Origin: Vulcanimicrobiota bacterium
Lineage (GTDB): Bacteria; Vulcanimicrobiota; Xenobia; Xenobiales; JADMJV01
DNA length: 64,000 bases
Assembly (NCBI GenBank): GCA_050250895.1
Contig: JBFWNU010000001.1
Location: 2,820,891-2,884,890 of the forward strand
Reading direction: 5' to 3'
Within the stretch, counting starts at the first letter, position 1. Every line of letters begins with the position of its first letter. The notes under the pieces are model-generated. The model saw only the letters and a list, made by a program, of their open reading frames with translations. It did no database searches and was not told where the DNA came from. Both the position numbers and the translations under genes were made by a program. Positions 17,968 to 37,703 of this stretch are shown piece by piece.

Positions 17968-18072
17968 CTAAGGACGCGTACACCCTCGGCTCGGCGACAT
18001 CGGCGAGTTGGCTGGTCGCCGCCGCTCGGGGCCCCTGATGACCAATGTGATGGCTTGAAGCGTCTTGAACCC

Positions 18073-20460: not shown

Positions 20461-20470
20461 TGCAAAAGGC

Positions 20471-22570
20471 CTACTTTCTGGCCAAGTCAAAGGGCGGGCT
20501 AGTAATCACATCGAAGCCGACCCCCGCCTGCAGGGCCAGGTTGTGGCTGGGCTTGTTCACCAGCAGGGCTCGGAGACCAGTGAAGCGGACTCTTCCATCC
20601 GGAAGCAGCGAAACGTCGACAGAGTTGACCCGATCCCTGAGCGGTTGGGTTAAGTGAACCATGCCGAGGCTAACCGAGGGCTCCAGGTCGAAAACGTCCT
20701 CATCGCCAACGACCACGACCTGGTTGTTGGCCGCCTCACCGCGCTCAACAATGGCAAGGCTGAACTTGCCTTCACCGTGAACCAACCCCAGTCGTGGCTC
20801 TTTCAACGCTAGAGGTTGGTAGTGATAGACCAGGATGTGGCGCAGGTCCCTTCCGTCCGTCCCATCGTTGTTCTTATCCAACCTTATTCGCTCCTGGTCC
20901 TCTGGCCGAACCTGGAGGAGGACGATTCCTGATGGGTCCACTCGAGCGTCCAACTCCAGTAGTTCAAACTCGTGCTTGTGTTCCAGCTCAAACAACCATT
21001 TGAAGAGCCTGAGGCCGGTCGATACCAATCCCAGTGCGCCGATGCCAGCGGGGCCAAGCAGTCCGGCCACCAATCCTGGTAAAGCCGACCGGGCGCCTTC
21101 CGCTATGAACTGCGGGAGCCTCCCTCTCTTGAGTTCGGCGTGGAGTCTTATCAACTCGCCAGTGAGTTCCAGCGGAGTCTTGCCGTCAAAGTTTGCGCCC
21201 AATTGCTGCAGGGCCAACTGACCCAAACCTCGCCCCAAATCGAGCGGCGCCACCCCAGCCGTCGCGGCCGTCACACCGCTGACCACCTCGAGGAGTCGGC
21301 GAAGGGTTTGGCGGTTGTGGAACTCACTGACGGTGCCCTCACCCGCCCTGAGCAACTTGCCGGCACTCTTGTCTTCCAAAGGGATGAGGAAGAGAGAAAA
21401 CGCAACCCCACCGAAAGTTGGCTTTCTGAGAGTCGGCCCATCATTGTGCACTACTCGCAGGAAAAAATTGCTATTCTCGAAGAAGTCCTGTTTCTTCTTG
21501 CCGGGGTCGAACATGGTCACTACGAATGTCCAGTCGCGGCCCTGATCCGAATCGAAGACCGAAGGCAGACCGAGGGCCTCGAGACCCTGACCTGATAAAT
21601 CAACTGAGAACTCATAGTTCGCGGACAAGAGTCGCGGCATCAAAGGCAGCGGGTTTGCTCTGCCCCCGTGATGCAAGTTTAGCCTCAGCGGATAAACCGT
21701 CGGAACGGGCCCGACGGGCCTGGTTTCGTCCCCTCCATCGTCGAACAGTTGGCGGCCGAGACTCGTGAGTTCCACGATTTCCGCTAGAGGAAGGAGCGGA
21801 TCGATGGAACCTTGCCGGACGCCACGAACGAACCCGCTGTCTTTGAGAGCATTTACGGCCGACATGACATCGTGAGAACGGTCGGCTACGGTCATTGCGC
21901 CCAGAGCCAGGTCTTGGACTAGCCGGAGACGTTCACGCGCCTCCGCCTGGGCATCCGCTAGAACGATGTTGAGCAAATCTAGTCCACGTCTCGTCAAGTT
22001 CTGGACCTCAGCCTCCATTTCGGAGGTGAGGTTGACAAATCCGGCACGAGCAAGCCGCAAAAGACTGTTCTTGACGTCGATTTCCAGCTTACCCGTTCGG
22101 CCCAAGAGCAGGTCTGCCAGAACTACAAGGTCCCGGAGTTGCAAGTCTTGCGTAACGGAGGTAAATGCCTCTGGCAACAGGCTGGACGGGATGCTCGAAA
22201 GGGCCGCGACGAGCAGTTGTTGGAGCTCATCGATGGCGAAGAGTTGGAGCTCGTCCAAGTCTGGCAGTTCCACTACGGGGTCGTCTAGGGCAACAGGAAG
22301 CAGCGTGGCCAGACCCTCGCGGCGCCGGGACAACGCAAGTTCCCAAAGAGGCTTGAACCAGTCTCCTTGTACGTCCGTCAGGCCATCGCTCAAAAGCGGG
22401 ACGAGTATGGCGCAGCCTCGGACCAAGTCCACCGCATCCAACAGAGGCGGTGAAACCACGCTCACTACCGCAAAAGGAATCAGCGCTTTGAATTGCTCTT
22501 CGAGTGAAAGGACAACGTCTATGGCAGCATCGCTAGCCAGTATGCCAACCTTTAACAAATGAACCCCCAT
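20471..22570 (-). CDS. Hypothetical protein; C-terminal ~400 aa paralogous to 34142-35458
   Basis: 699-aa ORF ending 10 bp before the TIR-propeller gene; shared motifs such as MFDP, PLED, GEGTV and DLRHIL.YHY. Confidence 0.8.
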   Translation of the reverse strand: MGVHLLKVGILASDAAIDVVLSLEEQFKALIPFAVVSVVSPPLLDAVDLVRGCAILVPLLSDGLTDVQGDWFKPLWELALSRRREGLATLLPVALDDPVVELPDLDELQLFAIDELQQLLVAALSSIPSSLLPEAFTSVTQDLQLRDLVVLADLLLGRTGKLEIDVKNSLLRLARAGFVNLTSEMEAEVQNLTRRGLDLLNIVLADAQAEARERLRLVQDLALGAMTVADRSHDVMSAVNALKDSGFVRGVRQGSIDPLLPLAEIVELTSLGRQLFDDGGDETRPVGPVPTVYPLRLNLHHGGRANPLPLMPRLLSANYEFSVDLSGQGLEALGLPSVFDSDQGRDWTFVVTMFDPGKKKQDFFENSNFFLRVVHNDGPTLRKPTFGGVAFSLFLIPLEDKSAGKLLRAGEGTVSEFHNRQTLRRLLEVVSGVTAATAGVAPLDLGRGLGQLALQQLGANFDGKTPLELTGELIRLHAELKRGRLPQFIAEGARSALPGLVAGLLGPAGIGALGLVSTGLRLFKWLFELEHKHEFELLELDARVDPSGIVLLQVRPEDQERIRLDKNNDGTDGRDLRHILVYHYQPLALKEPRLGLVHGEGKFSLAIVERGEAANNQVVVVGDEDVFDLEPSVSLGMVHLTQPLRDRVNSVDVSLLPDGRVRFTGLRALLVNKPSHNLALQAGVGFDVITSPPFDLARK

Positions 22571-22767
22571 AGAGCTGTTTGATAGGTCGAAGGTCCCACC
22601 CTAAGGCAGGAGTGGCCTCTTCTACTCGAGCCTTTCACTCGATGGTTGGCCCGTCCTTCTGCCCGACCGCGGAGCCGACCTTATGCGGAGGTCGGCAGAA
22701 TGGCGTGAAGGATGAGGTCTCGTCGGCCGGATTCGCAGGGGTCGTGCCCTGATCTTGCAAGGCTTGT

Positions 22768-22806
22768 CTCTCAGGAGCGCTCTCTCTCAGGAGCGCTCTC
22801 TCTCAG
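22768..22806. repeat. Short 16-bp tandem duplication (CTCTCAGGAGCGCTCT x2 plus partial) in divergent intergenic region
   Basis: Seen directly in the sequence. Confidence 0.7.
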
Positions 22807-22908
22807 TCGGGGACGCAGGCTCAGGCGGCTTTGGGTCGAATCGCTTTGCGATTCGAACCCAGCGAGGGCAATTCGCCATCAAATGAAGCAGGACGGAGTT
22901 TGCAGTTC

Positions 22909-24423
22909 ATGGGTCGTGAGCGCGAAGAATATATTACCTTCTTAAGCTACGCTTGGAATGATGACCGGGACTGGACGACCCATTTCGGCAATCTACTTGA
23001 AAGTATCCTTCAACAGTTCTCTGGTCAAAAGATGATGAAGATCTTTCGTGACCTAAAGTTGCGTTCGGATAAGATTCTATCGGAGGGGATACGGGAGGCT
23101 CTTGATTGTTCATCAAGCCTTACGTGCGTGATGTCCCCATCTTATCTCAAGTCCCAGTGGTGTCAAAATGAATTAAGCTATTTTCAGGAGTATCATCCGA
23201 CCCGCCCAATATTCCTCGTGACAGCAATTCCTGTGGAGGGCATCGATGGCCGTCTTCACCATCCTTTTTGGAACTATGTCCAGGAGCGAGGCCGATACAA
23301 GAGAATCAAGCCGACGGACGACGAGTTTCACGAGATTGTGGAGTACTTGGGGCAGGATATCCTAGAAGCCCTCGGTTTGTTCGAACCCCCCGGCGGCGCG
23401 CCGAAGTCCCACACCGCCGTGTCCCTCCTGGCGGAAGAGGATCGGACCAGATTGGCCTCTGGGCCACTGCCTACTGCATCGGAGAAGGGGATGCACCTTG
23501 AGGTCGCCGGACCCCATGACCTTCAACAGGTTGTTCTCTACAACTTCAACAGGAAAGCCCAAGCCTATTTTCGGTCGTTGCTTGCGCCCGCGCCAATGCA
23601 GTCACAGAACGCGCTGGAACTTCTTCGTATGATAGAGAAGTATTGCGAGGATGAAGTATTGGCCTACGGGTCTAGGTGGCTTGACGTAGGCTGTGGAACG
23701 GGTCTCGTGCTAGCGTTGATGCGAGACTGCCAAACAGCCCCTCCTCTCAACGATATCGTCACCCTCGGGTTAGACTATTCTTCTGAAATGATCAGGCTGT
23801 CAAAAGAGGTCGCTGCATACAATGATGTAGTCCAACTTGACGTCGTGGAGATGGACGCCGAGAAGTTGGGTCAACCGTTCGATTGCGTGGTGGCGAACAA
23901 CGTATTCCATTGGCTCTTGGATCTGGAAAAGATTCGGCGGGCCATGAAGAACTGTGCCTCGTGCCTGAGGCACGGCGGGATCTTGGCGGCCAGTATCGCG
24001 GGCCGTGGAACGGGGAAAGCCTTCTTCCAGGTATACCGGGAGACGATGGCCGAACTTCTTGACGGGGCAACGATGGCGAACTGGAAGTCACACATCGACA
24101 ATCCCATCGGGCTTCAAGCTTTGAGTGAAATCGTGGATCTCGCCCTTCCCAACGACTTCACTGTTGTTGAAGCTCGTCTAAGATATGAGCCTGTAGTCTA
24201 CAAAAACCCTGAAATGTATGTTGAGGCAGCTCGGGCCTACGGGGAATTTGTCTTCACTGCGCCATTTCTGGGACTGAACGGGGACGCCCTGGTTGATCAG
24301 TTCTGGCGTCGTCTCAAAGAGAAGTTTCGGCAACTCTGGGAGCAGTCACCTGCCGCAGAGCGGTTAGGTGGTAGATACCTACACGATCAGTACATGATCT
24401 ACGTTCTATATCGAAAGAGATGA
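22909..24423 (+). CDS. TIR domain - class I SAM methyltransferase fusion
   Basis: TIR: FLSYAWND, IFRD, SPSYLKSQWCQNEL. MTase: WLDVGCGTG, GLDYSSEMI, FDCVVANNVFHW, LRHGG. Confidence 0.85.
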   Translation: MGREREEYITFLSYAWNDDRDWTTHFGNLLESILQQFSGQKMMKIFRDLKLRSDKILSEGIREALDCSSSLTCVMSPSYLKSQWCQNELSYFQEYHPTRPIFLVTAIPVEGIDGRLHHPFWNYVQERGRYKRIKPTDDEFHEIVEYLGQDILEALGLFEPPGGAPKSHTAVSLLAEEDRTRLASGPLPTASEKGMHLEVAGPHDLQQVVLYNFNRKAQAYFRSLLAPAPMQSQNALELLRMIEKYCEDEVLAYGSRWLDVGCGTGLVLALMRDCQTAPPLNDIVTLGLDYSSEMIRLSKEVAAYNDVVQLDVVEMDAEKLGQPFDCVVANNVFHWLLDLEKIRRAMKNCASCLRHGGILAASIAGRGTGKAFFQVYRETMAELLDGATMANWKSHIDNPIGLQALSEIVDLALPNDFTVVEARLRYEPVVYKNPEMYVEAARAYGEFVFTAPFLGLNGDALVDQFWRRLKEKFRQLWEQSPAAERLGGRYLHDQYMIYVLYRKR

Positions 24424-24519
24424 CGAAGGTTGGCTGAACGCGGGAGCCGAGACAGACGCCACGAGGTCTACATAACCGTCTCGCGATGACATTCAAGCTC
24501 TAAGAGAGAACCAAGCTTC

Positions 24520-25746
24520 ATGCACACAGCTCAAGACCTGGACCAACTCCCAGGAATCCTTCTCGCTCAGCCCTGCATTCGGGATGGCCTCAACGAGCCA
24601 TACTCTCCCAATCACACTTCTGGGCAGACAACCACCCAGCACGTTGCCACGCAGATGGAAATGCTCACCAGGCTCCGACACGGAGACTATGCGGCGTTGC
24701 AGGCGATGGTGGCGAACCCCAACGGCGCCTTAACCGTGTCCGCGGAGGAGTTGAAGGATGTTCTCGCGCCTATGGCTGAGCAATTTGGCTCCTCAGAGTG
24801 GATGGTCCTCACGCTTGTCGTAGCCTATCACGACCTGGGCAAGATGGAGGCTGCTTGGGCCAACGAGCACGGTCTTGACACCACTGGGGTAGAGTGGTTG
24901 GCTCACGACTATGACAGTAAAGGCCTGCTGGTGGCCAATCCCGGACTCTTGACTCCCTACTCGCTCGACGAAAAGGAGCGAGAAGCCGTTCTGGAGCTTT
25001 GTCGTCTCCATTCGGTCCCCGGCCAGTTCTTTTTCGGAGAAGGCAGTTTGGCCGCCTACGAGGGGCTGCGGCATCAGCACCCTTTCGGGATGACGATGGG
25101 GCGGACTCACGGTTTGCTCGACGTGATGTCGGCTCTAAATCATGGGTTCGTCAGACCGATCCTGGAATCGCACCGCGACCTAGGAGAGCTCGTGGCCAAG
25201 GCTCAGTCTTCAGGAAGGCCTCTGGACGATGTCTTTCGAGATGCCTCGGAAGAACAGTTCGAGAAGGAAGTCGATAGCGGGGCGCCCGTGGGTGCTGTTA
25301 GTTGGCGGCGCCTTCGTCGTCTGCTCGGCAAGAGATTTTCTCCCGAGAATCTCAATGAGGCGTTGACTGCCGTCCCTGCAGAGTTTGTTACTCTGTTCGA
25401 CCTGGTGTCTGATGGCGACCATACCTGGTATGGCACCTACATCGCCAACGCCTTCGGCAGCGGTCTGTTGGCCGCTTTGGATGGGACGTCCGAGGCGGCC
25501 GGAGCGGTCGGGCTGCTGGTCAAGGCAATCGCTTGTGCGGGTCGACGAATGGAACATCGGAAGGAGTGGACCGTGAGTGCGCTAGAGCCGTCGCTTCAGG
25601 TGAAGGAAGGACGAGATGGCGCTCTGGCAGTCCTGCGAAGTCTGGCTCCAGCCGAGACCCTGGAACAAGCCTATCAGCTTCTAGATGCTGGGCCCCTGCG
25701 CTATAAAGTGGGCGATTCGGGAGTGGAGTTTTCGTGGCAGGCGTGA
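24520..25746 (+). CDS. Putative HD-domain metal-dependent phosphohydrolase
   Basis: TTTQHV...AYHDLGK...AHDYDS...RLHS...LDVMS spacing matches H..HD..H..H..D. Confidence 0.6.
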   Translation: MHTAQDLDQLPGILLAQPCIRDGLNEPYSPNHTSGQTTTQHVATQMEMLTRLRHGDYAALQAMVANPNGALTVSAEELKDVLAPMAEQFGSSEWMVLTLVVAYHDLGKMEAAWANEHGLDTTGVEWLAHDYDSKGLLVANPGLLTPYSLDEKEREAVLELCRLHSVPGQFFFGEGSLAAYEGLRHQHPFGMTMGRTHGLLDVMSALNHGFVRPILESHRDLGELVAKAQSSGRPLDDVFRDASEEQFEKEVDSGAPVGAVSWRRLRRLLGKRFSPENLNEALTAVPAEFVTLFDLVSDGDHTWYGTYIANAFGSGLLAALDGTSEAAGAVGLLVKAIACAGRRMEHRKEWTVSALEPSLQVKEGRDGALAVLRSLAPAETLEQAYQLLDAGPLRYKVGDSGVEFSWQA

Positions 25747-25873
25747 ATTACGCTTCTTCTCTCTGGACGTCGCCAACAGGCCCGGTGACGATAGCTTGTC
25801 TGCAGACCGATTGCACTCACTGAAGGATCCCGATGTAATGCAACGAAGCGGGTCGTCACTATGAGGGGGTCGA

Positions 25874-26455
25874 GTGGTAACTTTCACCAAACGCAGCTTT
25901 CGGTTGAATCTAAGTTTTGCTCAATTCGGGGGTGAGATCGACCAGGAGGATCGCCAGTGCGCCTGGGAGTTCTACTGTGAACTCACGACTCGGGTTGGTG
26001 TCCGGGGTAGATTGGACGGATCGGGCAGCGATGTCTTCACCGGCGAGATTTTGGTTGAAAGTCTCGAGTCGCTATGTACGTTCTTCCAGACGTCCCGCAT
26101 CATTATGAAGAAATACCCGGTTGGACGGGTTGCCGCCGGGGAGGCCAACCTTGGATTTGCCATTGCTCAGTTGCTCGAGTTCGTCGTCCGGCCATTCCTC
26201 GAGAAGTGGCAAGCGACCTATCGGTACTGGTGGACTGTTCATCAGGACGGCCGCAGAAACCCATTCGCCCTACAAGCAGAGTTCCCCAAGTTCGAAGAGT
26301 TGACGAAAGACTGGGTCGCCGTCCGCAAGTTTTGCCGGTCCGCTGCGCACGAACTGGCCAAAGCCTATCATCTCATCGACCTGCTGGACCTGGCACCCGA
26401 CGAGGCCCGTCAGCAACAGGTGAACGAGACGGCCGCTGTTTGCAGGCTGATTTAG
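25874..26455 (+). CDS. Conserved-looking helical hypothetical protein
   Basis: GAGGGGG RBS; AWEFYCELTTR and VRPFLEKWQ motifs; directly upstream of the TIR gene. Confidence 0.7.
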   Translation: MVTFTKRSFRLNLSFAQFGGEIDQEDRQCAWEFYCELTTRVGVRGRLDGSGSDVFTGEILVESLESLCTFFQTSRIIMKKYPVGRVAAGEANLGFAIAQLLEFVVRPFLEKWQATYRYWWTVHQDGRRNPFALQAEFPKFEELTKDWVAVRKFCRSAAHELAKAYHLIDLLDLAPDEARQQQVNETAAVCRLI

Positions 26456-26466
26456 CGGAGGACTAT

Positions 26467-27744
26467 TTGCTTAAGACGACAGTAGATACTAGGGCACCGT
26501 TTTGCCTCTATGTGGTCTGGCACCCTGAATGCACCGATGGGAAATACCTGGCCCGCCAAGTCTTTGATTGGTTTCACGCCCCGAGCGGCGAACTCCATCG
26601 GTCGGGCTTGGGAATTCCGGTATATTACCGCACTTCCAAGCAGGGGCCACCGCGTCCGCTAGAGGCGGACGAGGCCCAGCACAACGTCGTAGTCGCTCTT
26701 GTGGATCACAATCTGGTCGCGGACGCGGGTTGGCGTGGCTTCCTCGCGGGGTGTCGCCACAAGAATACGACGATCTTTCCGGTCCCGCTTCATCGCTCAG
26801 CCTATCAGCTAAGTTCCGTCAACGCTCTCAACTTTCTTCGCGTGGACGGTCGAAAAGATGGAGAAGAAGACCCTCAGCAACGACAGGAACGCCGTGGTCA
26901 ACGATTGCGCCGGCAACTGACCGAAGTCTGTGCCCGGTTGCTTCAGAAGTCGCTGCACGGAAAGACCGACGAAACCAGAGCTAATCTCGAGACGATTCTT
27001 GAGAAGATACAAGACGAGGTGGATTGCCTCGAGTTGCGCAAGTACCTCGCACCGGTCTTCCGTGACGAAGCGGGGGAACCCGTCACCATCTTTCTCAGCC
27101 ATGCCAAGGCTGATGGCACCGATGTCACCGAGAAGTTGCGAATGCATGTCCAGACCTACGGCCAGTTGCGCTCTTTCTACGATGAGAGTGACCTGCCTAT
27201 CGGCTACCAGTTCGGGAACAAGTTGGAGGAGGCCGTGAAAGAAGGTGGCGCTATGATTTCAGTGGTGACCGATGCCTATGCCAGCCGACCTTGGTGCCGG
27301 GCTGAGTTGGCTTGGGCGCGGCGTCCACGACTGGAGGAGGGTAGCCTAAGTCATTGGAAGGTGACGCCCACCCTGGTTGTGACAGCAATGAGCGGTGGCC
27401 TGACCAGGACCATACCCGAAATAGGGAATCTTCCTTCCATCCACTGGGTGCCAGGACGCGAACAGTACATATTGGATTTGCTCCTTCTGGAGGTGCTGCT
27501 GGCAAGTTATCATCGCCTGAACGCGCAGAGCATTGTTCATCGTTCCGGGCGCCATGTAATTAGCTGGGTGCCCGACCCGATCTCGGTCATGGAACTGGCC
27601 GCGACCTGCCGCGCTGAAGGGCTTGAGCTAAACGAACTGGTTTACCCGGGTCACGGTATCTCGGCGGCCGAACGGGAGGCCATCAAGCGCATCGTGCCAG
27701 GAACGCTCACTTTGAGGACCTATGAGGAGGCCTGGCAAGAATGA
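26467..27744 (+). CDS. TIR domain protein (SLOG-associated)
   Basis: TTG start after GGAGG; IFLSHAKADG, FYDESDL, YASRPWCRAEL; ATGA overlap with the next gene. Confidence 0.85.
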   Translation: MLKTTVDTRAPFCLYVVWHPECTDGKYLARQVFDWFHAPSGELHRSGLGIPVYYRTSKQGPPRPLEADEAQHNVVVALVDHNLVADAGWRGFLAGCRHKNTTIFPVPLHRSAYQLSSVNALNFLRVDGRKDGEEDPQQRQERRGQRLRRQLTEVCARLLQKSLHGKTDETRANLETILEKIQDEVDCLELRKYLAPVFRDEAGEPVTIFLSHAKADGTDVTEKLRMHVQTYGQLRSFYDESDLPIGYQFGNKLEEAVKEGGAMISVVTDAYASRPWCRAELAWARRPRLEEGSLSHWKVTPTLVVTAMSGGLTRTIPEIGNLPSIHWVPGREQYILDLLLLEVLLASYHRLNAQSIVHRSGRHVISWVPDPISVMELAATCRAEGLELNELVYPGHGISAAEREAIKRIVPGTLTLRTYEEAWQE

Positions 27745-28712
27745 GCAGGAAGCTTGTCGCTCTCTCGTTCGGCGATAGCCCTGACCTGGCGGAATTGGGC
27801 TATGATGCCGAGCATCTCGATGTGGTCGCCATGCGCATCGCCAGGTTTCTCTTGCGTCGTGGTTATGACATCGCATACGGCGGGGTCTTCCGTTCTCAAA
27901 GCTTTCTAGACACATTGCTCGAACTTGTTCGTGCCGAGACGGCCCATCAGCAGGAAGAGGCGCAGGCCGAGGGACGGCAGTGGTCTGAATCTGAGCCACG
28001 ACTATTTAGCTATCAGGCCTGGCCCTATTATGATGCTATCACCACAGAAGTCATAGCCGATACTCTCGGTTTCATTCGCTACGTCAAGGTCCATCCCGTC
28101 GACGGAGAAGGCATCGACCATCGCACTCGGGCCCGTCACTTTTTGGATCCCCCAGACGGCAACATTCCCAAAGGCGCGGCTTTGATGGCAGCGGCGCTCA
28201 CCCGGATGCGCAGGGCCATGACCGCGCCAGCAGTTGACATCGACGGGGGTGACGTCTCCGCCCCCAGCGCCCGCATTGTGCTAGGCGGAGCCGTCGAGAA
28301 TTGGGCCGGAATTTTGCCCGGCATAGCAGAAGAGATTCTCTGGACTGCCCGAGCCGGGCAACCCGTCTACATCTTGGGGGCTTTCGGAGGCTCAGCAAAG
28401 GTTGTCGCAGACTATCTGCGCGACGGTGAGAATTTACCCAAAGTCCTGACCCTTGAGCATCATCGCTCCAACGCCAAAATGGCCAGGGTCATCGAGGGTT
28501 TCCCCGCCATCGGCTTCGAGGCTGTTTATCCCGAAGAGGGGTTCCGGGAACTCCAAAGGTTTCTCGCGGAAGCATGCGGGAACTTTAGCCTGCTCAATCC
28601 GCTCGGTGAAGAGAACCGCGAGCTAATGACAAGTCACAATGTCATCAATATCCTTCGTATACTCAAAACTCAGTTTCCCGATCTTCGGGGGCAGCACTCG
28701 ACCCCCAGTTGA
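27741..28712 (+). CDS. Stand-alone SLOG (SMF/DprA/LOG) domain protein
   Basis: ALSFGDSPDL, IAYGG, LTRMR, RIVLGG, PGIAEE, YILGAFGG. Confidence 0.75.
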   Translation: MSRKLVALSFGDSPDLAELGYDAEHLDVVAMRIARFLLRRGYDIAYGGVFRSQSFLDTLLELVRAETAHQQEEAQAEGRQWSESEPRLFSYQAWPYYDAITTEVIADTLGFIRYVKVHPVDGEGIDHRTRARHFLDPPDGNIPKGAALMAAALTRMRRAMTAPAVDIDGGDVSAPSARIVLGGAVENWAGILPGIAEEILWTARAGQPVYILGAFGGSAKVVADYLRDGENLPKVLTLEHHRSNAKMARVIEGFPAIGFEAVYPEEGFRELQRFLAEACGNFSLLNPLGEENRELMTSHNVINILRILKTQFPDLRGQHSTPS

Positions 28713-28757
28713 CGTTGGTGCCGCTCGTTTTGCCGGGTGAGAGAGAGTCTCGGGTCT

Positions 28758-31700
28758 TCATCTTGCGGCGCCCCGAATCCAACCGACGACAGCGTTATTG
28801 AGCTTGACCAGTCTGATGACGACCGGGTCTTGAGCAGAGAATTTTCGCCTGCGAACCTTGATGCAGAACTCCAGCAATTCCAGCAGAGAACGGAACTGGA
28901 AGGGGGAACTTCCACGTTGCCAGGACGCCTCAAATCCGGCCAGGACGCGACCTAGCTCTTCTTCTGGTGCTCCGTCGCAGACCCAGCGCATGAAGAGTCG
29001 GCGAGCCGCCTTCATGTGCTCGAAGAACGTGGATCCACTTGCCTCTAGCGCGGGAAGAACCAATTCGGGCGCAGCCGCGGGCCAAGCCTGACACATCCTG
29101 GCCAGGAAGAGATAGTCCAGCAGATAATCATCGTCGCGGGCCAATTCAACAGCCGCCTGATAGCCGGCTCGCATCTCCTCGAGAAGGGCGTCACTGGTCT
29201 TATCGCCTGCTTCGCGCAGCATCGCCAACATCGCCCCTCCACCAATGCGAGAATGCGCCTTGGCATTGGGACAGATCGCAACCATGCCCTTTCTGTCGTC
29301 CAAGATTTCTTGAATGCTGCGAGGCGTCGGTTCGCTCTGCTCTGCTCTAAACCAGAGAAGCATCTCAAGGCGCAGCAAAATGGACAAATCGTCCATAGTG
29401 ATCAACGACGACTCTTTAGCCTTGTGGAACAGGTCAAAGGCCGAGACGAGAGCACTGTCGGCCGGTAGGGCTGCTTGCCCGATTTCGCTCAAGCCAAATA
29501 GTGGATGGATTAATTGGCTGTAGGCTCTTGCCAGGGCAAGCAAGACATCGGGCCTGCCAGAGCCCCGTTCCTCGCCCAGCCAGGTCGGTTTGGCCGCACG
29601 ACGAAGCGACTCGAGTTCCTTGAGAAGACCCGAATAGTCGTCCAGTTGGCAAACCTCGGCTCGTTGGCTGAGATTTTCGAGGTCACGGACAAATTCTCGG
29701 GGGCTGACGTAAGGATCGGTCTCTCTGGACTGCGCGTATCCAGGATCCGAGGACCACCGGTACTCAGGATCGCCGTAACACTGGTAGGCGCCCCAGGAAT
29801 TGAACTGGCTGTACTCGTTCCAGGTGGCTTGACGGGCGTGCAAAACGGCTCGGCCGAAAGTCTCCCCTTTGCTCATCTCTTGGTAGAAAGTGCGGGCGAA
29901 TAGCTCGGCGGAGTTGTCCTCCACGGCCCAACCGGCCGCGATAACCGCACGAGCGCCCGCGCGGATTATCGCCGTCGCCAGATTGGCCGCCAACTCGTTT
30001 GACCTTTGCTCATAGCGTTCAATTCGGCCCAGGTGGCAGCAGTTGATAAATACCAACTCAGGACAGGGGTTGAGTTGTGATACCGTGGCCGGGGTCAACA
30101 GCATGTCAGGGCCGATCACCATGCCCGCTTCGGGCTTCTCGCCAGAATTGTCGTACACGCCGTGACCCGCCAGATGCAGCACTCGATAGGGACGAGACAG
30201 CAGTGCGGTACCCACCGTCACTCCGTCAGGCCGCGGAAGGTGCGTTACCTGGAACTTGCCCGCCGACAAGGTCTGTGCGACCGCGCGGGCTTCGTCTTGC
30301 GCGGCCTTTAGCTCGGCGAGCTTGCTGACGGGATCTCCGACAACGAGCGCAGTGAAGAGGTCGGTAGGGCGTGCTTGATCGCGAAACTCTGAGCTGGCAA
30401 GTTGGCGAATCATTTCGGACCGAACCGATACTGGACGTGAATCTCGGTCCTCACCGCCATCGACCAATAGCTCCCAGGGAAATCGCGCCGCAGCTTCGTC
30501 TAGCAGCAAGATGACCTTTTCTTCGGAATCGCCCACTTCTTTCAGGCGATATGGCATCAATAGTTGGTAAAGTGCCCGAGAGAGGTCCGGGTTCCACTGC
30601 GGAACTGTCGAGGCCTGCCGCAGCATGCCGTCTACAAGTTGGCGATCATAGGGAAGCGGCATCACTTCGCTGCGGGCGAGACTGGTAAGGAGCGTGTGAC
30701 GCAGCTGGCCTGTCTCTTCCTCTGTGATTTGCAGGCGCTGCCACTTCGACATCCCGCGCTGAAAACTGGCTCGTGACAAACGTCCAGAGACCGTCCGGAC
30801 CTCACCAGAGAACTCGAACATGCCACCCAGCTTCTCGCCCTGGCAGAGCTGGCGAGCAACGTGAGCGGCAGCGATGGCGCGGTCCTCGTAGAGTTCGATG
30901 AACTCGATATGCCTCAGGTCGTCGCTGGCCCCCGCAGAAGCCAACACCTGCTTCGCCTCCAGGACACCATTAAGAATGCAACTGATGCTCCCTTCCAACC
31001 CGATTCCGCCCTCCATCGAACCAATGGCCACGAAGGAAAGTCCGCCACCAACGGTCGTTGCTCGACCCTCTAGCAGAAACTCCACCACGGCCTGGCGGAC
31101 GGTTTTTACTAACTGGGTTTGCTTGAGTGCGCCAAACTGGCCGAGGCCAATCAAGATGCCACCTTTGAAGGCTCCGGTACCGTCTGGGTCTGGCAGCAGA
31201 TAACGTCGGGATGATTCCAGCCGCCATGGGTATACTCCGCAGGCTCGTTCCAGGGATAGATGACCCCCTAACTTGTAATCGAGCGCCCGCTCCGAGCCTT
31301 CAATGGGTTGCTTGTGGTAACAGCCCAGCGCGACGGGAAAAGCGGCATAACCGAGATCGCCGTGCGTGACGCCGACGCGAACACGGGTGTCCGGTTGTTG
31401 GTCGAGGGGTGCCACATCCTGAGCCCCGAGCACGGCCGCCTCGAGTTCGCGTTGGGTAAGGAAGGTCAGGGGGACATCGTCGTATTCCAACTCGGGTCCA
31501 GAGCGAAGTCGACGGGCTGGAGGCTGGGTAGGCTCGACGCCACGGCCTTGGGTCCAGCCATCATTTAAGAGCTGGAGATAGCCCTCGAAAGCAGGTCGGT
31601 GGGAAGGTAGATTGCCGTGCGAAGCTTCAGCATAGAACATCGGCACGCCAGGCAGTTTTCCGCGAGCCCAGGGCACCGTACCGTCGCCCTCCGCCGTCAC

Positions 31701-34034
31701 CTGGAAATCAATTGTGGGACCGAACAGGAAACGGTCTCTGATGTACCAACCCACGGGAGTGTTGGAGCCCACTCCAGCAACGTAGACCATCCTCTCGGGA
31801 TCCACCCCGGCTTCGAGCTCCTTCCAAGCATTGGCGACGGCGTTTAAACGGGTCGCCGTGATACGTTTGAATTTGCAGCCAAATTCCTGGTCTAGTTGGT
31901 CGAAGAAGCCGCTCCAACCATTGGCTGACCAGACGCCGAGGGATTGATGGGTGTCGTAAGGCAATAGCTGGATCACGCCATCAAAGGAGTGAATAACACG
32001 TAGAATCTGCTCTTTGCTATGTACGAAATCGCCGGCCGCGAGTCCGTTAATGACGGAGCCTTTGCCGGCGAACATCTGCATCGCTGCGTAGGACCCAAGA
32101 TTTGGGACTCCCAGCATGACGATGCGGCTGCCGGGTCGTGAGCAGACCTCCCGCCAGAGGTCCGGTCGTCTGACCATAAGAGCGCGTGCGACCAAACCGC
32201 CCATCGAATGACAGAGAAAGCGGATCGGTTGCTTGGAATCGACGGTCGCGAGAACCTCTTCCAATCGGATGGCAAGACGCTCGGCTTCCTCCACCGCCGT
32301 CAGGCGCCAGTCGAACGGATGGACGACGACCTGGTGTGAGGCACTCAAAAACTCGCAGAGTTTTCCGTACCAGCGGCTCATTACGCCATCGGCCCTGACT
32401 CCCACCCGTTTCCTGTCGAGAGTGAGCTCGCCAAATGCCCCTTTGACCAAATTCTGGAGTGAAACCCAGGTGGGTTTGCCGTCGACAGATAGGGTCGAGC
32501 CCATGGCACCGGGCAGGACGAAAACCACAGGCCGCTTGTTCGCTCCTGCATCTCGATGTAAGAAGAACTTGATCGGACTTGGGATCTCGTGCTGGTCTGT
32601 TTCGATTTGGCTGTATTTGGAATGGTCGCCAAGCAGTCCGCTTCGGATCGCCTCGTAGGTCGGCTCATTGTAGAAGTATCGGAGATGGTTCGCGTCCGGG
32701 CCTTGATGCAGGTAGTAGCGGGCGTAAGCTCGCCGAATGCCTCCGTACATCGCTCGAGTAGGGACCACGTAATCGTGGTCTTCGAGGTAGAAGAGATCGG
32801 CGGCCAGCAGGCCGACTTGCTGCTTCAGGCTGCCACCCTTCACATCTGCCGACACCACTGTCAAGTCGGCCGTCGTGGAGCGGTCGGGGCGATTGAGCAG
32901 GCGCACCAGGGGCGAGTCAGGCAACATGGCCGCCAGGCCGGGCAGGACATCTGGCTTGCAGCGCTCCTTTATGAGAGCGAGAACACAAGCATGAATCGCG
33001 TCCCAGGCGTTCCGTAAGGCGCTGAACACCGGGGTGGCGGGGGCTGCCCCCACGGCGGTAGCCCCCAGAGCGGCTGCCCCTAAGGCCCAGCCGGGTACAT
33101 TGAGGAGGGTGGAGAGATATCGGTCCAGTCTTCCAGAGGCCAAGGTTGTGCCCCGGCCAGGGCAGGCCACACGGACAAAGCGTTCTACTTTCGGTCGTCG
33201 CTCGGCCAGAAGCTCACGGAACCGTGAGAAATCCGGGGCTACACTCTCGAAGAGTTGCTCGTCGAGCTTGTCGATAGTAGCGGGATCAATGCAGAGGAGT
33301 TCTCCTACGAGCCCACCTCGGGAGTGGCTCAGAATGTGCAGGCGGGCCCCCACCGGAAGGCATTCTAGCAGCGAGATGGCATTGGTCAAGGGGCTTTCCG
33401 TAAGAGTTCGATGGTCAAAGCCGTAAAAGACCCCGCCATAATTGTCCTTCACCAGGTCGAGCCATGCTTTCCGGCGGGAGGGCTCTGCCAGGCCGGCGAA
33501 GGCTGCCATGGTGGACGAGGCTGTACCATGTAGCAGCAATAGGGCCGGGGCCTCGGGGCAGGAGACCTGGTTCACCCTCTGGGTCTTGAACCAGCCGTCC
33601 TCAAAGGAACGCAACTCCAGCAGTCCGGGGTTTGGTATGACTCTGTCTTCCTGAGCTCGACAGAGGGCCCGCGCCGCTGGCGCTGTGGGGCTGAGACGAA
33701 AGACTTCGAGTGCTTTGAGCAGCGCGCCGGCACCTGCTCGCGTCTGTAGACCCGAGGAGAAACGGTCCAGGCGAATGATGCCATCGTCCGCCCCGTCTCG
33801 GGTCTGTGCGCTACGAAACTGGAGCTCTTCGGCGCTGGACCATTGACGGAATCCGCCCTCATACTCCAGCATGACCACATCGGTAGGCTCGACCGGTAGT
33901 GATTGCTCTTGGCCACCGTCCCTCACCGCAATGACCTCGACGCTGTGGACGACTTCGACCAGTTCCATCGGAGGGGTTACTGATGTCCTCCCCGATTCGG
34001 CTTTCTTCCCGGGAACAACAAGTCTGGGTTCCAT
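28758..34034 (-). CDS. Large multidomain protein: two alpha/beta-hydrolase (lipase-like) domains + CHAT caspase-like protease + helical tail
   Basis: LLHGTASS/SHSRGG; VLPGAMGS/CHSMGG; CHAT dyad LHLAGHG and FINCCHLG; AAGWAVED. Start uncertain (ORF is open to 34232). Confidence 0.88.
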   Translation of the reverse strand: MEPRLVVPGKKAESGRTSVTPPMELVEVVHSVEVIAVRDGGQEQSLPVEPTDVVMLEYEGGFRQWSSAEELQFRSAQTRDGADDGIIRLDRFSSGLQTRAGAGALLKALEVFRLSPTAPAARALCRAQEDRVIPNPGLLELRSFEDGWFKTQRVNQVSCPEAPALLLLHGTASSTMAAFAGLAEPSRRKAWLDLVKDNYGGVFYGFDHRTLTESPLTNAISLLECLPVGARLHILSHSRGGLVGELLCIDPATIDKLDEQLFESVAPDFSRFRELLAERRPKVERFVRVACPGRGTTLASGRLDRYLSTLLNVPGWALGAAALGATAVGAAPATPVFSALRNAWDAIHACVLALIKERCKPDVLPGLAAMLPDSPLVRLLNRPDRSTTADLTVVSADVKGGSLKQQVGLLAADLFYLEDHDYVVPTRAMYGGIRRAYARYYLHQGPDANHLRYFYNEPTYEAIRSGLLGDHSKYSQIETDQHEIPSPIKFFLHRDAGANKRPVVFVLPGAMGSTLSVDGKPTWVSLQNLVKGAFGELTLDRKRVGVRADGVMSRWYGKLCEFLSASHQVVVHPFDWRLTAVEEAERLAIRLEEVLATVDSKQPIRFLCHSMGGLVARALMVRRPDLWREVCSRPGSRIVMLGVPNLGSYAAMQMFAGKGSVINGLAAGDFVHSKEQILRVIHSFDGVIQLLPYDTHQSLGVWSANGWSGFFDQLDQEFGCKFKRITATRLNAVANAWKELEAGVDPERMVYVAGVGSNTPVGWYIRDRFLFGPTIDFQVTAEGDGTVPWARGKLPGVPMFYAEASHGNLPSHRPAFEGYLQLLNDGWTQGRGVEPTQPPARRLRSGPELEYDDVPLTFLTQRELEAAVLGAQDVAPLDQQPDTRVRVGVTHGDLGYAAFPVALGCYHKQPIEGSERALDYKLGGHLSLERACGVYPWRLESSRRYLLPDPDGTGAFKGGILIGLGQFGALKQTQLVKTVRQAVVEFLLEGRATTVGGGLSFVAIGSMEGGIGLEGSISCILNGVLEAKQVLASAGASDDLRHIEFIELYEDRAIAAAHVARQLCQGEKLGGMFEFSGEVRTVSGRLSRASFQRGMSKWQRLQITEEETGQLRHTLLTSLARSEVMPLPYDRQLVDGMLRQASTVPQWNPDLSRALYQLLMPYRLKEVGDSEEKVILLLDEAAARFPWELLVDGGEDRDSRPVSVRSEMIRQLASSEFRDQARPTDLFTALVVGDPVSKLAELKAAQDEARAVAQTLSAGKFQVTHLPRPDGVTVGTALLSRPYRVLHLAGHGVYDNSGEKPEAGMVIGPDMLLTPATVSQLNPCPELVFINCCHLGRIERYEQRSNELAANLATAIIRAGARAVIAAGWAVEDNSAELFARTFYQEMSKGETFGRAVLHARQATWNEYSQFNSWGAYQCYGDPEYRWSSDPGYAQSRETDPYVSPREFVRDLENLSQRAEVCQLDDYSGLLKELESLRRAAKPTWLGEERGSGRPDVLLALARAYSQLIHPLFGLSEIGQAALPADSALVSAFDLFHKAKESSLITMDDLSILLRLEMLLWFRAEQSEPTPRSIQEILDDRKGMVAICPNAKAHSRIGGGAMLAMLREAGDKTSDALLEEMRAGYQAAVELARDDDYLLDYLFLARMCQAWPAAAPELVLPALEASGSTFFEHMKAARRLFMRWVCDGAPEEELGRVLAGFEASWQRGSSPFQFRSLLELLEFCIKVRRRKFSAQDPVVIRLVKLNNAVVGWIRGAAR

Positions 34035-34141
34035 GACCGACACCTCCCCGAATTGGTCGCTATTGGTTCCTGGAGAAGGCGCAGACTCCTCCGAAGTGGA
34101 CCACTGCCGAATGAACTGAGATTGTAGGCCCGCTGACCGCG

Positions 34142-35458
34142 CTAGCTCACGCTCGTGGCGACTGGCAGTTTGTGGATATTGAACGCTTTGCTCTTCAGCG
34201 TCTCGAACCCGACGTGGGCGAATAGGCGGCAAGAATGGACCGCATCGCGCCCCTCGAGCAAGGCAGAGAGCCCGGACATGACCAGTCGACCGTCTTCTTT
34301 GACGGAAAGCAGAACGCGTTCATCGATCTCGGGACCCACCTCGAGTTGCCACGGTTCGGAAAAGCGACAGGAAGCGACACTGAGGGATGGAGCGAATTCA
34401 TAGGTGTCGCCCTGGACCTTGAGGGTTGGGACAATAAGGCCATCTGGCTCTTCGCCCTCGGTCAGCAGGCACAGGCTGAAGCGCTCGCCAGCCGGCAAGA
34501 AACCGACCTTTTTGGGAAGGCTTGGCAGGGCGCGATAGTGATAGGCGAGGATGTGGCGCAGGTCCAATCCTCCGTTGCCCTCGTTGTTGGCATCAAAACG
34601 AATACGCTCCAGGTCACCGTCTTTGATCTTCAGAAGCTGATAACCCGCATCCGCTAGTTCTTGTTGCGGGGGGATCTCGGGTACGAGGTTGTAGAATCTG
34701 AAGTCGTGAGCGTGAGCGATGCCGTCGAGGGCCGTGAACACTTTCAAGGCTAGTTTGATCTGGGCAAGAGGAAGGCCCTGGACCAGTCCGGCGAGGGCCC
34801 CCAGGGCCAGATGCTCCACCTGGTCCTCGACGAAGCGAGAAAGCTCACCCTCATTCAGTTTGGCTGTGATGTCTTTGATCTTAGCCATGACATCGAGTAG
34901 CGATGCTCCTGGTTCGAGCTTCAGCCCACTCTCTGCGAGCAACTCGTCGGCGATGTTGGTATTCAGGTCCAAAGGTTCGACTCCCTCGAGCGTTTTCAGC
35001 ATCTTGCTCAGTCGCTCGAAGACGCTGGTCGATTGAGCGATGGCTGCAAGCGATTTTACGGTTCCCTCGCCTTGTCTCAAAGCCGAACCGATATCCGCGT
35101 CTTCGAGGGGAGCCAGGAAGATTGACACCGCGGGGCCCCACACTTTGGCTCGGAACCGAAACTCGTTCTTTTGAAACTTCTTCTTGAAGAAGGAGGTATT
35201 GGTCAAGAACTCGGGGCTCTTATCGTTAGGGTCGAACATGAGGCCGAACAGGACCCAATTGCGACCTCTGAACGGATCCTCAGAGCCCAGCGCCTGGGTG
35301 ACCGCTGGGCCAAAGTCTACTTCGATAAACTGGCTCGGGCGTCGCTCGATGTGTGCCATGTCAGCAAGCGGGACGGTTTTGGAACCCTGGGAAATGATCG
35401 CGCGCATGGGAAAACTGCTCGGTTTGAACATCGACTTGCCTTTCATCTGAACTGGCAT
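34142..35458 (-). CDS. Hypothetical protein, paralogue of the C-terminal part of 20471-22570
   Basis: 438-aa ORF upstream of the CHAT gene; GRNW..MFDP, FLAPLED, GEGTV, ERIRFD.NN.G..G.DLRHILAYHY. Confidence 0.8.
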   Translation of the reverse strand: MPVQMKGKSMFKPSSFPMRAIISQGSKTVPLADMAHIERRPSQFIEVDFGPAVTQALGSEDPFRGRNWVLFGLMFDPNDKSPEFLTNTSFFKKKFQKNEFRFRAKVWGPAVSIFLAPLEDADIGSALRQGEGTVKSLAAIAQSTSVFERLSKMLKTLEGVEPLDLNTNIADELLAESGLKLEPGASLLDVMAKIKDITAKLNEGELSRFVEDQVEHLALGALAGLVQGLPLAQIKLALKVFTALDGIAHAHDFRFYNLVPEIPPQQELADAGYQLLKIKDGDLERIRFDANNEGNGGLDLRHILAYHYRALPSLPKKVGFLPAGERFSLCLLTEGEEPDGLIVPTLKVQGDTYEFAPSLSVASCRFSEPWQLEVGPEIDERVLLSVKEDGRLVMSGLSALLEGRDAVHSCRLFAHVGFETLKSKAFNIHKLPVATSVS

Positions 35459-35701: not shown

Positions 35702-37084
35702 ATGCTACAAGTCAATACGCAAGGTGCCAAAATGGTGCAGATCGCTGAAAGCCAATTGGGGCTGAAAGAAGACTCGCGAGGCGAGAACAAGGGTCCGGAG
35801 ATCAAGAAGTATTTCGAAGTGGCCGGCGTCGGAGAAGGTCTGGAATGGTGCAACTTCTTCGTCAACTGGGTTTACAAGCAGACCACCGGCAAGTTTGCTC
35901 CGTGGGGCAAAGACATGGGGTTCGTTCCCGAACTGGTGCGGTGGGCTAAGCAGAATGGTCGGTGGGTGCGTCACCACGACCCCAAAGACAAGCATTTCGC
36001 CCTAGCGGAGCCCCAGGTGGGGGACCTTCTCATCGTGGGCGACTTCCACCCGGATTTCTTGCCGAAGATGCAGCACTACAAGCACGTAGGCATCGTGGCC
36101 GAGGTCCATTCCCATAAGGTCGAGACCATCGACGGCAACGTGGGAAACATGGTGAGTCGCAACCATCGCTCTCGAGCGTTCGACGGCCACTCCGACTACA
36201 TTGCGGGCTATGTGCGACTGTTCGACTCTCTAGCGCCCATTGCCAACCCCCCCATCCAGAGCCGTCTGGTAGCGATGGCCCAGCATCGCTTGATCGTGCA
36301 TCTCGATCAACTGACTGCCGACTCCGAGTTGGTCAGCGAGATCCAGACTCGGCTCATGGAACTTGGACTGCTTAACCCTCCTGATGTCGATGGAATCATC
36401 GGTCCTCGCACCCTGGGGGCCCTGGCCAGGTTTTGTGACTTCGCCCACCTCGACAACATGGCTACCCGCAAATTCGGGCCAACCTTCGCGACCAAGCTTC
36501 TCGAGACCAGGCTCGTTCCTCAAGACTTCTCTATGGGTGTCAACCTGGTAGCGCCGGCGACCAACGAATCAAAGTTTGACACCGCTCTTCGCTTCGTGCT
36601 CAAGTGGGAGGGTGGCTTCGTCAATCATCCGGCTGACCCCGGAGGTGCCACCAACAAGGGCATCACCCAACGAACCTACGACGCCTATCGGCTACAGAAG
36701 TCCCTGCCGACCCGTTCGGTTCAGTTCCTGGCCGATGACGAGATGCGAGACATCTATTCGAATCGCTACTGGAAGCCGAGCCAGGCCGAGTTGATGGTAA
36801 CGCCTCTGGCCCTGGCGCACTTCGACAGCTGCGTCAACTTTGGCATCGGCGGGGGCACCACATTCCTGCAAGAGGCTTTAGGCCTGCCTATGGACGGCGA
36901 CCTCGGTTCCCAGACCCGCCAGGCCATGCTGGCTCGCAACAATCGTGAACTGGCCCTCGAGATCGTCGAGAAACGAATCGCGTATCGTCACGAACGAGTG
37001 CGCCGCAACCCCAGCCAGGAGGTCTTCTTGAAGGGTTGGCTCAACCGCGACAATGATCTCAGGCGCCTCATCCTGAGTTTGTAG
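35702..37084 (+). CDS. Peptidoglycan hydrolase: CHAP + PG-binding + GH108 lysozyme
   Basis: WCNFFVNW/HVGIV/IDGN (CHAP); VDGIIGPRT (PG-binding); EGGFVNHPADPGGATNKGIT and FLKGWLNR (GH108). Confidence 0.9.
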   Translation: MLQVNTQGAKMVQIAESQLGLKEDSRGENKGPEIKKYFEVAGVGEGLEWCNFFVNWVYKQTTGKFAPWGKDMGFVPELVRWAKQNGRWVRHHDPKDKHFALAEPQVGDLLIVGDFHPDFLPKMQHYKHVGIVAEVHSHKVETIDGNVGNMVSRNHRSRAFDGHSDYIAGYVRLFDSLAPIANPPIQSRLVAMAQHRLIVHLDQLTADSELVSEIQTRLMELGLLNPPDVDGIIGPRTLGALARFCDFAHLDNMATRKFGPTFATKLLETRLVPQDFSMGVNLVAPATNESKFDTALRFVLKWEGGFVNHPADPGGATNKGITQRTYDAYRLQKSLPTRSVQFLADDEMRDIYSNRYWKPSQAELMVTPLALAHFDSCVNFGIGGGTTFLQEALGLPMDGDLGSQTRQAMLARNNRELALEIVEKRIAYRHERVRRNPSQEVFLKGWLNRDNDLRRLILSL

Positions 37085-37112
37085 TCAGCTCTCAGAAAGG
37101 ATTCGATTTCCC

Positions 37113-37418
37113 ATGGCCGCAAAATGTGAATTGGTCGACCTTTATAATAAGGAGACCATCCAGAATCTCCCCGCGCCCGGAGACGGCGAGTCTTATGCTG
37201 TCTTTCGCGTCGCCGAGTTTACCGAGGCCGGAATCCATGGCTTCATCCGATTGGTCCCCGCCGTGGGCCTGTCTATGTCTCGCAGCAGCATCCCCAAGGA
37301 GAAGGCTGCGCGCATTGGCCAGTTGGCGGCCCAGGTAGTGGAGACGCTCGAAGACGGCAAGATTTCCGACTTCGAGATCTTCATGTTGATGTCTGCCATC
37401 AGGCAGTTGAACAAATAG
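37113..37418 (+). CDS. Hypothetical protein
   Basis: AAAGGA RBS; within the cluster; C-terminal EDGKISDFE. Confidence 0.6.
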   Translation: MAAKCELVDLYNKETIQNLPAPGDGESYAVFRVAEFTEAGIHGFIRLVPAVGLSMSRSSIPKEKAARIGQLAAQVVETLEDGKISDFEIFMLMSAIRQLNK

Positions 37419-37495
37419 GGCACCGAGAGTCACCGCGACGCGGTGGCTCTCGGCCTTTTCTGTCGTTTCTAGTTTGCTTAGGATTGGAGTCTCCC

Positions 37496-37684
37496 ATGGA
37501 AATCGATCGTGAACTGATCGCCAATATACAGGCGTGCGCCGAGCTAGCTCAACAGCGGGCCGGTAGCCTGATGGTCCTGGGTGCGGACCCGCCCGGCCGC
37601 GCCGAGGCAGAGGCGGCCTATCGTGCTGCTGTTGGCTATCTGAACCAGGCCCTCGAAGCACTTCAAAAGTGTTCACCAACTTAA
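37496..37684 (+). CDS. Small hypothetical helical protein
   Basis: GGAG RBS; co-oriented within the cluster. Confidence 0.5.
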   Translation: MEIDRELIANIQACAELAQQRAGSLMVLGADPPGRAEAEAAYRAAVGYLNQALEALQKCSPT

Positions 37685-37703
37685 ACACAGGGAGGTTGTA
37701 GCC

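Follow-up and report, generated by a model that had tools for sequence, protein, structure and literature searches.

Two minus-strand genes in a 64,000-nucleotide stretch of the genome of a Vulcanimicrobiota bacterium (assembly GCA_050250895.1, contig JBFWNU010000001.1; the whole stretch is hereafter called the window, and all positions are counted within it) raise the question of what one and the same large protein domain is doing at the head of two different gene pairs that encode immune-type enzymes. As read from their open reading frames and translations, the genes encode P0001, a long form of 699 amino acids that consists of an N-terminal extension and the family core (20471-22570), and P0002, a short form of 438 amino acids that is the core only (34142-35458), the start of which is placed at Met10 or later in database entries. 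The initial annotation had described a domain of about 400 residues that occurs twice. Pairwise BLASTP indeed joined residues 290-698 of P0001 to residues 13-430 of P0002 in a single collinear alignment with 134 identities in 431 positions (31%) and an E-value of 2e-54, which is far beyond chance, and the four motif pairs that had been cited for the likeness all lie inside this alignment. At the DNA level, the likeness is limited to the segment of the best-conserved motif (34536-34615 against 20820-20899, 79% over 80 nucleotides). In the organism's own genome (9.5 Mb, 17 contigs), the family has two copies and no more, namely P0001 and P0002, which lie in separate operons, 11.6 kb apart.

The family and its members

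It was confirmed that the domain is unrecognized in the libraries searched. For P0001 and P0002, the Pfam scan returned no family at E ≤ 0.1, no PADLOC model and no PHROGs family matched, and NCBIfam gave no credible match; when all seven aligned family members were scanned singly against Pfam at E ≤ 10, no real family was retrieved, and one member gave one spurious match. The family profile had no match among the sequences of all PDB chains (best E 0.21), and the best score of P0002 in the ESM Atlas was 0.82, to unnamed clusters. An exhaustive phmmer search of 1.84 billion cluster representatives, with P0002 as query, recovered eight proteins at E ≤ 1e-3. Two of these are the window's own, i.e., P0001 and P0005, the latter being P0002 read from Met10, and five are credible relatives from outside this genome: the short forms P0006 (411 amino acids, E 1e-64), P0008 (419 amino acids, E 1.1e-50) and P0009 (407 amino acids, E 2.1e-23), the long form P0007 (713 amino acids, E 4.9e-56), and P0010, a fragment of 220 amino acids (E 7.8e-12), whose 90% cluster includes P0015 (605 amino acids). 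The clusters of these relatives are tiny, with one to five members, and originate from metagenome assemblies and one NCBI record; the encoding contigs measure 17.7 kb (P0006), 19.6 kb (P0007), 29 kb (P0008), 9.3 kb (P0009) and 27 kb (P0015). The remaining protein, P0011 (277 amino acids, E 3.5e-8), was rejected as a family member, its match to residues 106-151 of P0002 being judged repeat-inflated; it contains five repeats of about 55 amino acids, each like that segment (35% identity), and is probably a translated tandem DNA repeat.

In 400 other genomes sampled from the phylum, neither P0002 nor the family profile found a match, and word-indexed protein searches returned the query itself alone, plus P0009 when the profile was used. 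No relative was found in genome contigs searched with family alignment A2 and with P0015, in metagenome contigs searched with A2, or in viral contigs searched with A2, P0009 and P0008, and P0002 had no tblastn match in plasmids or phages. One metagenome-contig match obtained with P0009 as query (L003) was discarded as a false positive, a multi-pass membrane protein that shares one 8-residue word. Four open reading frames of the window itself (24520-25746, 26074-27744, 41007-42653 and 43302-45038) were compared with family alignment A1 by hhalign, with a probability of 0.6% at most.

Identities among the seven aligned cores range from 21% to 43%. In the maximum-likelihood tree of these cores, the long forms P0001, P0007 and P0015 form one clade with a support of 100/100, the other four members (P0002, P0006, P0008 and P0009) being short forms. 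Since the clade of P0001 stands apart from P0002, the two copies in this genome do not stem from a recent duplication. The N-terminal extension of P0001 is whole in P0007, while P0015 lacks the first 120 or so amino acids and keeps the part with two LTxxG segments. In the lineage of P0013, P0014 and P0015, the long-form gene is intact on 9 contigs (605 amino acids) and is elsewhere split into pieces of 166 and 220 amino acids (24-28 contigs, up to 490 kb), which suggests that a frameshift has disrupted the gene in part of the genomes. Overall, on sequence grounds, P0001 and P0002 are a long and a short member of a very rare, undescribed family, new to the libraries searched; as it is nameless, the literature is not searchable for it by name. 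The domain had also been thought to link TIR and caspase-like modules. That proposal is not supported: the two copies reside in separate operons and belong to different, anciently split subfamilies, so that there is no evidence of such a link.

Predicted fold and conserved elements

AlphaFold2, which was run with the seven-row family alignment, produced a model of P0002 with a mean predicted local distance difference test (pLDDT) of 73.4 and a predicted template-modelling score of 0.70, in which seven strands (residues 15-116) are followed by six helices (121-248) and further strands (252-430). The model of P0001 has the same order of strands, helices and strands in residues 290-699 (20474-21703), a core that was delimited by BLASTP, the alignment and the model together. 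The core of about 410 amino acids is thereby predicted to be a beta-sandwich, an amphipathic helix bundle of about 130 amino acids that hides an uncharged hairpin kinked by Pro and Gly, and a C-terminal immunoglobulin-like (Ig-like) sandwich. Both models and the hydropathy scans bear out the earlier description of a central, helical, Gly/Pro-rich hydrophobic segment flanked by beta-rich parts.

The hairpin spans residues 487-530 in P0001 (20981-21112), where it is Gly/Pro-rich and has 26 uncharged residues and a Kyte-Doolittle hydropathy over 19 residues (KD19) of 1.71, pLDDT being below 50 at 483-530. In P0002 it is the Pro-kinked hairpin of the helical insert, residues 205-248 (34715-34846), with 19 uncharged residues and the protein's KD19 peak at residue 216; here pLDDT is below 50 at 200-249. 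In six of the seven members, the core is most hydrophobic at the last two helices of the insert (KD19 1.35-1.71), the exception being P0009, which peaks elsewhere, and all seven share at the hairpin a stretch of 17-30 residues that is free of charges and has a Pro or Gly-Pro at its center. Over most of its length, the periodicity of the insert is of the alpha type, not the beta type.

The best-conserved element of the seven-member alignment lies next to this insert, at residues 285-308 of P0002 (34535-34606), where the family motif is R-[IL]-R-[FL]-[DE]-x-N-x-[DE]-G-x4-D-[LH]-R-H-[IV]-[IL]-x-[YW]-[HR]-[YF]. Residues R287, N291, G294, D299, R301 and H302 are invariant in all seven, and in the P0002 model the motif occupies a loop and a strand right after the insert. 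Its counterpart in P0001, R-I-R-L-D-x-N-x-D-G-x4-D-L-R-H-I-L-x-Y-H-Y at residues 561-584 (20819-20890), was located both by alignment and by the DNA self-match. We take the motif to resemble the calcium-binding D-x-N-x-D-G loops. Inside the insert itself, the 'PLDL' loop of P0002 (residues 162-165; 34964-34975) is a candidate protease site by virtue of its conservation, P162 and D164 being kept in six of seven members, and of its coil assignment by DSSP in the model. The conserved 'GEGT' was also considered as a thioester-type site, a reading that was rejected because no member has a Cys there.

Fold searches added little to this picture. Foldseek against PDB and BFVD listed solely tandem Ig, cadherin or titin-type chains, with template-modelling scores (TM-scores) by query of 0.18 at most. 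The Foldseek and VIA-align matches listed were generic Ig-like ones, mainly over residues 313-435 of P0002, so that the rest of the model was barely probed; no gasdermin, pore-former, arrestin or macroglobulin chain occurs among the matches listed, which were filled by the C-terminal sandwich.

The N-terminal extension of the long form is harder to read. Its first 140 residues (22151-22570) had been called a degenerate TIR-like segment, and some observations agree. Searched alone against Pfam at E ≤ 10, residues 1-140 gave a single match, to TIR_2 over residues 48-111, at an E-value of 0.15 and with 13 bits, short of the cut-off of 28. All ten best named feature matches of residues 1-290 in the ESM Atlas were TIR clusters, at a score of 0.88, which is under the 0.9 line, and the Atlas's own model of P0001 aligned to TIR_2 clusters over residues 1-140 or so, with TM-scores that reach 0.65 depending on the match. 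On the other side, hhalign of the N-termini of P0001 and P0007 against an alignment of four TIR domains of the window gave a probability of 0.2% each, the N-terminus of P0007 had no TIR match in Pfam, and whole-protein Pfam scans of P0001 had none. A PDB profile search with the extension found nothing, and a word-indexed search with P0001 residues 1-290 found P0001 itself alone. Over residues 1-283 the AlphaFold2 model is uninformative, its pLDDT being mostly below 50 there with two to three alignment rows (block means of 23-39 over 1-70 and 91-140 and of 43-53 over 71-90, at three-row depth), and two alignments of the long-form N-termini disagree over where a catalytic glutamate would lie. 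The TIR-like reading of residues 1-140 is a consistent lead, not a result. Residues 141-289 (21704-22150) form a linker with two 'LTxxG' segments, which are indeed present as described and kept in P0001, P0007 and P0015. The winged-helix-like character ascribed to them is putative, pLDDT being about 50 and Pfam at E ≤ 10 giving no match to residues 141-289, including none to a winged helix-turn-helix (wHTH) family.

Partner genes and the surrounding island

Both copies stand at the head of a tight pair of genes whose second member encodes an immune-type enzyme, the gene order being as originally claimed. The stop codon of P0001 (20473-20471) is 10 nucleotides from the ATG (20460) of its downstream partner P0003 (18073-20460, minus strand). 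Judged from its sequence, P0003 has the domain order TIR (residues 11-170 or so), transmembrane helix (207-225) and a WD40-type propeller region of about 575 amino acids. Its TIR domain was matched by TIR_2 with 31.1 bits, above the cut-off of 28, and has the W..E motif; bacterial TIRs are usually NAD-consuming enzymes. The propeller matches in Pfam were partial, and the transmembrane segment is one strong hydrophobic helix (KD19 2.06). The TIR domain would be cytoplasmic and the propeller outside, a topology like that of Toll-like receptors, which is rare in bacteria. A complex prediction of P0003 residues 11-240 with P0001 returned ipSAE values of 0.00 and 0.00, which count neither for nor against binding.

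P0002 is followed by P0004 (28758-34034, minus strand), a protein of 1759-1824 amino acids in which a DUF7379 hydrolase (Pfam E 9.6e-35), an LCAT-like lipase (6.2e-7) and a CHAT protease (7.9e-35) precede a helical C-terminus. Its probable ATG at 34034, which has GGAGG ahead of it, is 107 nucleotides from the stop codon of P0002 (34144-34142). The sequence includes 'SHSRGG' and 'CHSMGG', which are like nucleophile elbows, as well as 'HLAGHG' and 'INCCHLG', which lie where the His and Cys are expected; from general knowledge of these folds, we take these motifs to hold the catalytic residues. A literature search for 'DUF7379' found no paper. No terminator-like site was detected between the genes of either pair, a weak negative since the scan gave fewer sites than shuffled sequences did. 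A look-up of sequencing runs for 18073-22570 listed none. Among 401 phylum genomes, P0004 had matches in 12, all at the level of the CHAT domain except in this genome itself (G000), and P0003 had matches in three, at the TIR level only except, again, in G000; the former tally includes the unpublished genome G359 and the latter the unpublished G177, which no other claim uses. No full-length relative of either partner was found in the 400 phylum genomes sampled, so that no operon orthologous to either pair but headed by another gene was available for comparison.

The surroundings of the two pairs are those of a dense, accessory defence island. The GC content is 0.55-0.61 at 14-46 kb, and the flanks are higher (0.61-0.70 at 1-14 kb and 0.63-0.65 at 46-50 kb); positions 14000-33999 had no DNA match longer than 100 bp in any of the 15 other genomes of the taxonomic family, including one of the same genus. 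Five further TIR proteins were counted in the window. Convergent with the P0001-P0003 pair are plus-strand genes for an S8 subtilase (15060-16823; PADLOC 'subtilase', 1.8e-41) and a metallo-beta-lactamase hydrolase (16795-17967; PADLOC LmuA, 1.1e-51, and Avs1a, 8.6e-32), which overlap by 29 nucleotides and have no SMC or STAND partner in their operon. Between the two pairs, four plus-strand genes run from 22831 to 28712, encoding a fusion of TIR and S-adenosylmethionine (SAM) methyltransferase (22831-24423), an unknown protein of 408 amino acids (24520-25746), a 330-residue unknown domain with a TIR (26074-27744), and a SLOG cluster 2 protein (27741-28712; 3.7e-40), whose gene overlaps the preceding one by 4 nucleotides and is convergent with P0004.

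Divergent from P0002 is a group of genes for multi-domain peptidoglycan hydrolases (CHAP with PG_binding and GH108, GH19-like with M15, and NlpC/P60) with a truncated catalase-like gene (35702-40876). Further on, a plus-strand gene (42662-43432) encodes a second protein with TIR and transmembrane helix (256 amino acids, helix at 206-228), whose TIR region is 44% identical to residues 12-234 of P0003. It overlaps by 131 nucleotides an open reading frame of 578 amino acids in another frame (43302-45038), which has no family match, and the two may represent a receptor of TIR, transmembrane helix and ectodomain that is frameshifted or divided over two genes; the C-terminal part is unrelated to the propeller of P0003. 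The plus-strand cluster at 45681-52818, with QueC, radical-SAM, two DndB-like and TGT-like genes, we take to be a probable 7-deazaguanine DNA-modification (Dpd-type) cluster. Elsewhere in the window are genes for a Ser/Thr kinase with AAA_16 and TPR (1163 amino acids; 8824-12315, minus), a PIN protein (12845-13234, minus), an HNH protein (52829-53713, minus) and a fusion of TIR with an FGE-sulfatase-type domain (58181-59695, plus), of which the kinase and the TIR fusion are again of the conflict-system type.

Candidate roles and comparison with known systems

By sequence and by model, the family is real, novel and very rare and has a conserved plan of sandwich, helical insert and sandwich; its role is inferred. 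Our tentative proposal, which we hold with considerable doubt, is that the core acts in each module as an executor without enzymatic activity, being soluble but having a hairpin that is latently membrane-active. For the short form, cleavage by the downstream CHAT protease would take place in an exposed loop of the helical insert, the conserved PLDL loop being the candidate, and the hairpin so released would enter the inner membrane. P0001, the long form, would be recruited by its N-terminal TIR-like region to the membrane-anchored receptor P0003, where clustering would have the same effect as the protease cut. The outcome would be cell death of the abortive-infection type, alongside the lipase and NADase activities of the partners. 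The proposal was made because the kinked, uncharged hairpin wrapped in amphipathic helices is the sole feature, besides the polar motif, that all members share, and because the short form occupies the place of a pore-former gene relative to a caspase-like protease; the strong transmembrane helix of P0003 would likewise place the partner of the long form at the membrane. Of the original suggestion of a new adaptor or membrane-inserting effector, the novelty, the double occurrence, the position at the head of each pair and a conserved hairpin that fits a latent membrane-inserting element stand, and the linking role is not supported.

Several observations weigh against an executor. The best-conserved element is not the hairpin but the polar motif (R287, D289, N291, D299, R301, H302, Y306, H307 and Y308 of P0002), which speaks equally for the binding of a ligand or a metal. 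The hairpin is moderately hydrophobic, KD19 being below 1.6 in P0002, P0006, P0007, P0008 and P0009, and AlphaFold2 is merely unconfident there, for which the seven-row alignment may be the cause. Ig-like sandwiches are commoner in binding modules than in killers. Both partners already bear effectors (two lipase-type hydrolases in one, a TIR with W..E in the other), so that an additional executor is not required, and P0003, the partner of the long form, has no protease domain. A second candidate is a sensor or adaptor subunit, in which the sandwiches and the polar motif would bind an invader component, a small molecule or an ion and then switch on the enzyme partner, i.e., the CHAT/lipase protein for the short form and, through TIR-like contacts, the TIR receptor for the long form, whose winged-helix-like segments might read DNA. 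We regard this role as doubtful too, and place it second: binding would be in keeping with the Ig-like sandwiches and the conserved polar site, and effector domains are in place in both partners, but the searches matched no ligand-binding family, the conservation of the hairpin is left unexplained, P0003 owns a sensor-type propeller already, and the contacts between the proteins would be hypothetical. A SLATT-type effector with two transmembrane helices is not favored either, as there was no Pfam match and the core has one kinked uncharged run, not two such helices.

The upstream position of each copy and its tight coupling to a potentially self-toxic enzyme would also suit a negative regulator that silences the downstream enzyme until infection. 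Such a regulator might be an inhibitor of the antitoxin kind or a chaperone, and in the case of the long form also a winged-helix transcriptional repressor. wHTH repressors head some defense operons, and the conserved LTxxG segments of the long form could be DNA-binding; however, the short forms, four of the seven members, have no such extension, 410 amino acids is large for an antitoxin, and no wHTH family matched, which makes such a regulator unlikely. We consider it more unlikely still that the proteins are non-immune, either as cell-envelope or antagonism factors that work with the lipase and the peptidoglycan hydrolases or as incidental neighbors of immune-type domains. P0002 is indeed divergent from the peptidoglycan hydrolase cluster, and predation or competition also use lipases and proteases, but P0001 and P0002 have no signal peptide or secretion-associated domain by sequence and hydropathy, and two independent copies both lie beside immune-type enzymes in a defense-dense window. 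A very divergent gasdermin is suggested by the gene order with the caspase-like protease and by nothing else. It is highly improbable, as no Pfam or PADLOC model matched, both libraries presumably containing gasdermin models, as no gasdermin chain was among the Foldseek and VIA-align matches listed (the C-terminal domain having filled these), and as the model has two sandwich domains with a 130-residue helical insert in about 410 amino acids. Ranked by probability, the executor comes first, followed by the sensor or adaptor, the negative regulator, the non-immune factor and, last, the gasdermin.

As an executor, the core would offer a second solution, structurally unrelated to gasdermins, to the task that these perform, namely the conversion of a protease or TIR signal into membrane damage, and it would show that a single executor module can be coupled to one signal or the other; as a sensor or adaptor, it would be a new accessory domain shared by TIR and caspase-like immunity. 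Either way, its partner P0003 is a rare bacterial receptor with Toll-like topology. The value is limited by the extreme rarity of the family (five credible outside relatives in 1.84 billion cluster representatives) and by the inferred nature of all functional statements.

Adaptor domains of conflict systems are reportedly small, about 100 amino acids, and fused to the components that they join, unlike the core studied here, which is 410 amino acids long and free-standing. The conflict systems of multicellular bacteria combine TIR, caspase-superfamily peptidase, alpha/beta-hydrolase, SLOG and FGE-sulfatase-type domains, according to two studies (Kaur et al. 2020, PMC7159879; Kaur et al. 2021, PMC8195603). 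The domain repertoire of the present island is alike, as is the sharing of accessory domains by otherwise different modules, but no Pfam model from the studies matched the core. Type IV Thoeris pairs a short TIR protein with a caspase-like protease (Rousset et al., 10.1101/2024.10.24.620036). TIR proteins and a caspase-family protease thereby share one defense locus, as they do here. The present locus differs from the definition of type IV Thoeris in that the CHAT gene is preceded by that of P0002, a protein without a TIR domain, in that the nearest TIR genes belong to other transcription units, and in that the CHAT protein is large (1759-1824 amino acids) and carries lipase domains.

For bacterial gasdermin systems, the same report places the pore-former gene directly upstream of that of the caspase-like protease (10.1101/2024.10.24.620036). 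P0002 is similarly a non-enzymatic gene directly ahead of a CHAT-type protease in a defense island, and the proposed logic, in which cleavage would free a membrane-active element, is the same. The differences are that there is no similarity in sequence or among the folds listed, that the protein is larger and has two predicted beta-sandwiches with an alpha-helical insert, that the P0004 protease is fused to two lipase-type hydrolases, and that P0001 pairs with a TIR receptor and not a protease. Among alpha-helical pore formers, colicin pore domains, the Bcl-2 family and the diphtheria T domain have a hydrophobic hairpin that is buried. Here, too, a soluble protein is predicted to surround with amphipathic helices a helical hairpin that is kinked and, over 17-30 residues, uncharged; unlike in those pore formers, the helical part is an insert of a beta-sandwich protein and much shorter, and no sequence match to them was found.

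Lastly, there is a topological analogy to the Toll-like receptor with its TIR adaptor, in that P0003 has sensor-type repeats, one transmembrane helix and a TIR, and P0001 may carry a TIR-like N-terminus; it differs in that the TIR-likeness of P0001 is a lead and the membrane orientation of P0003 is predicted. In its boldest form, to which we give less credence than to the executor role as such, the comparison would make the family a new executor class unrelated to gasdermins, a soluble double sandwich that latches an alpha-helical membrane-inserting hairpin and is fired in one lineage by a caspase-like protease and in another by TIR-TIR recruitment to a membrane-spanning receptor of sensor, transmembrane helix and TIR, with P0003 and P0001 as a bacterial counterpart of transmembrane signaling by receptor, adaptor and executor.

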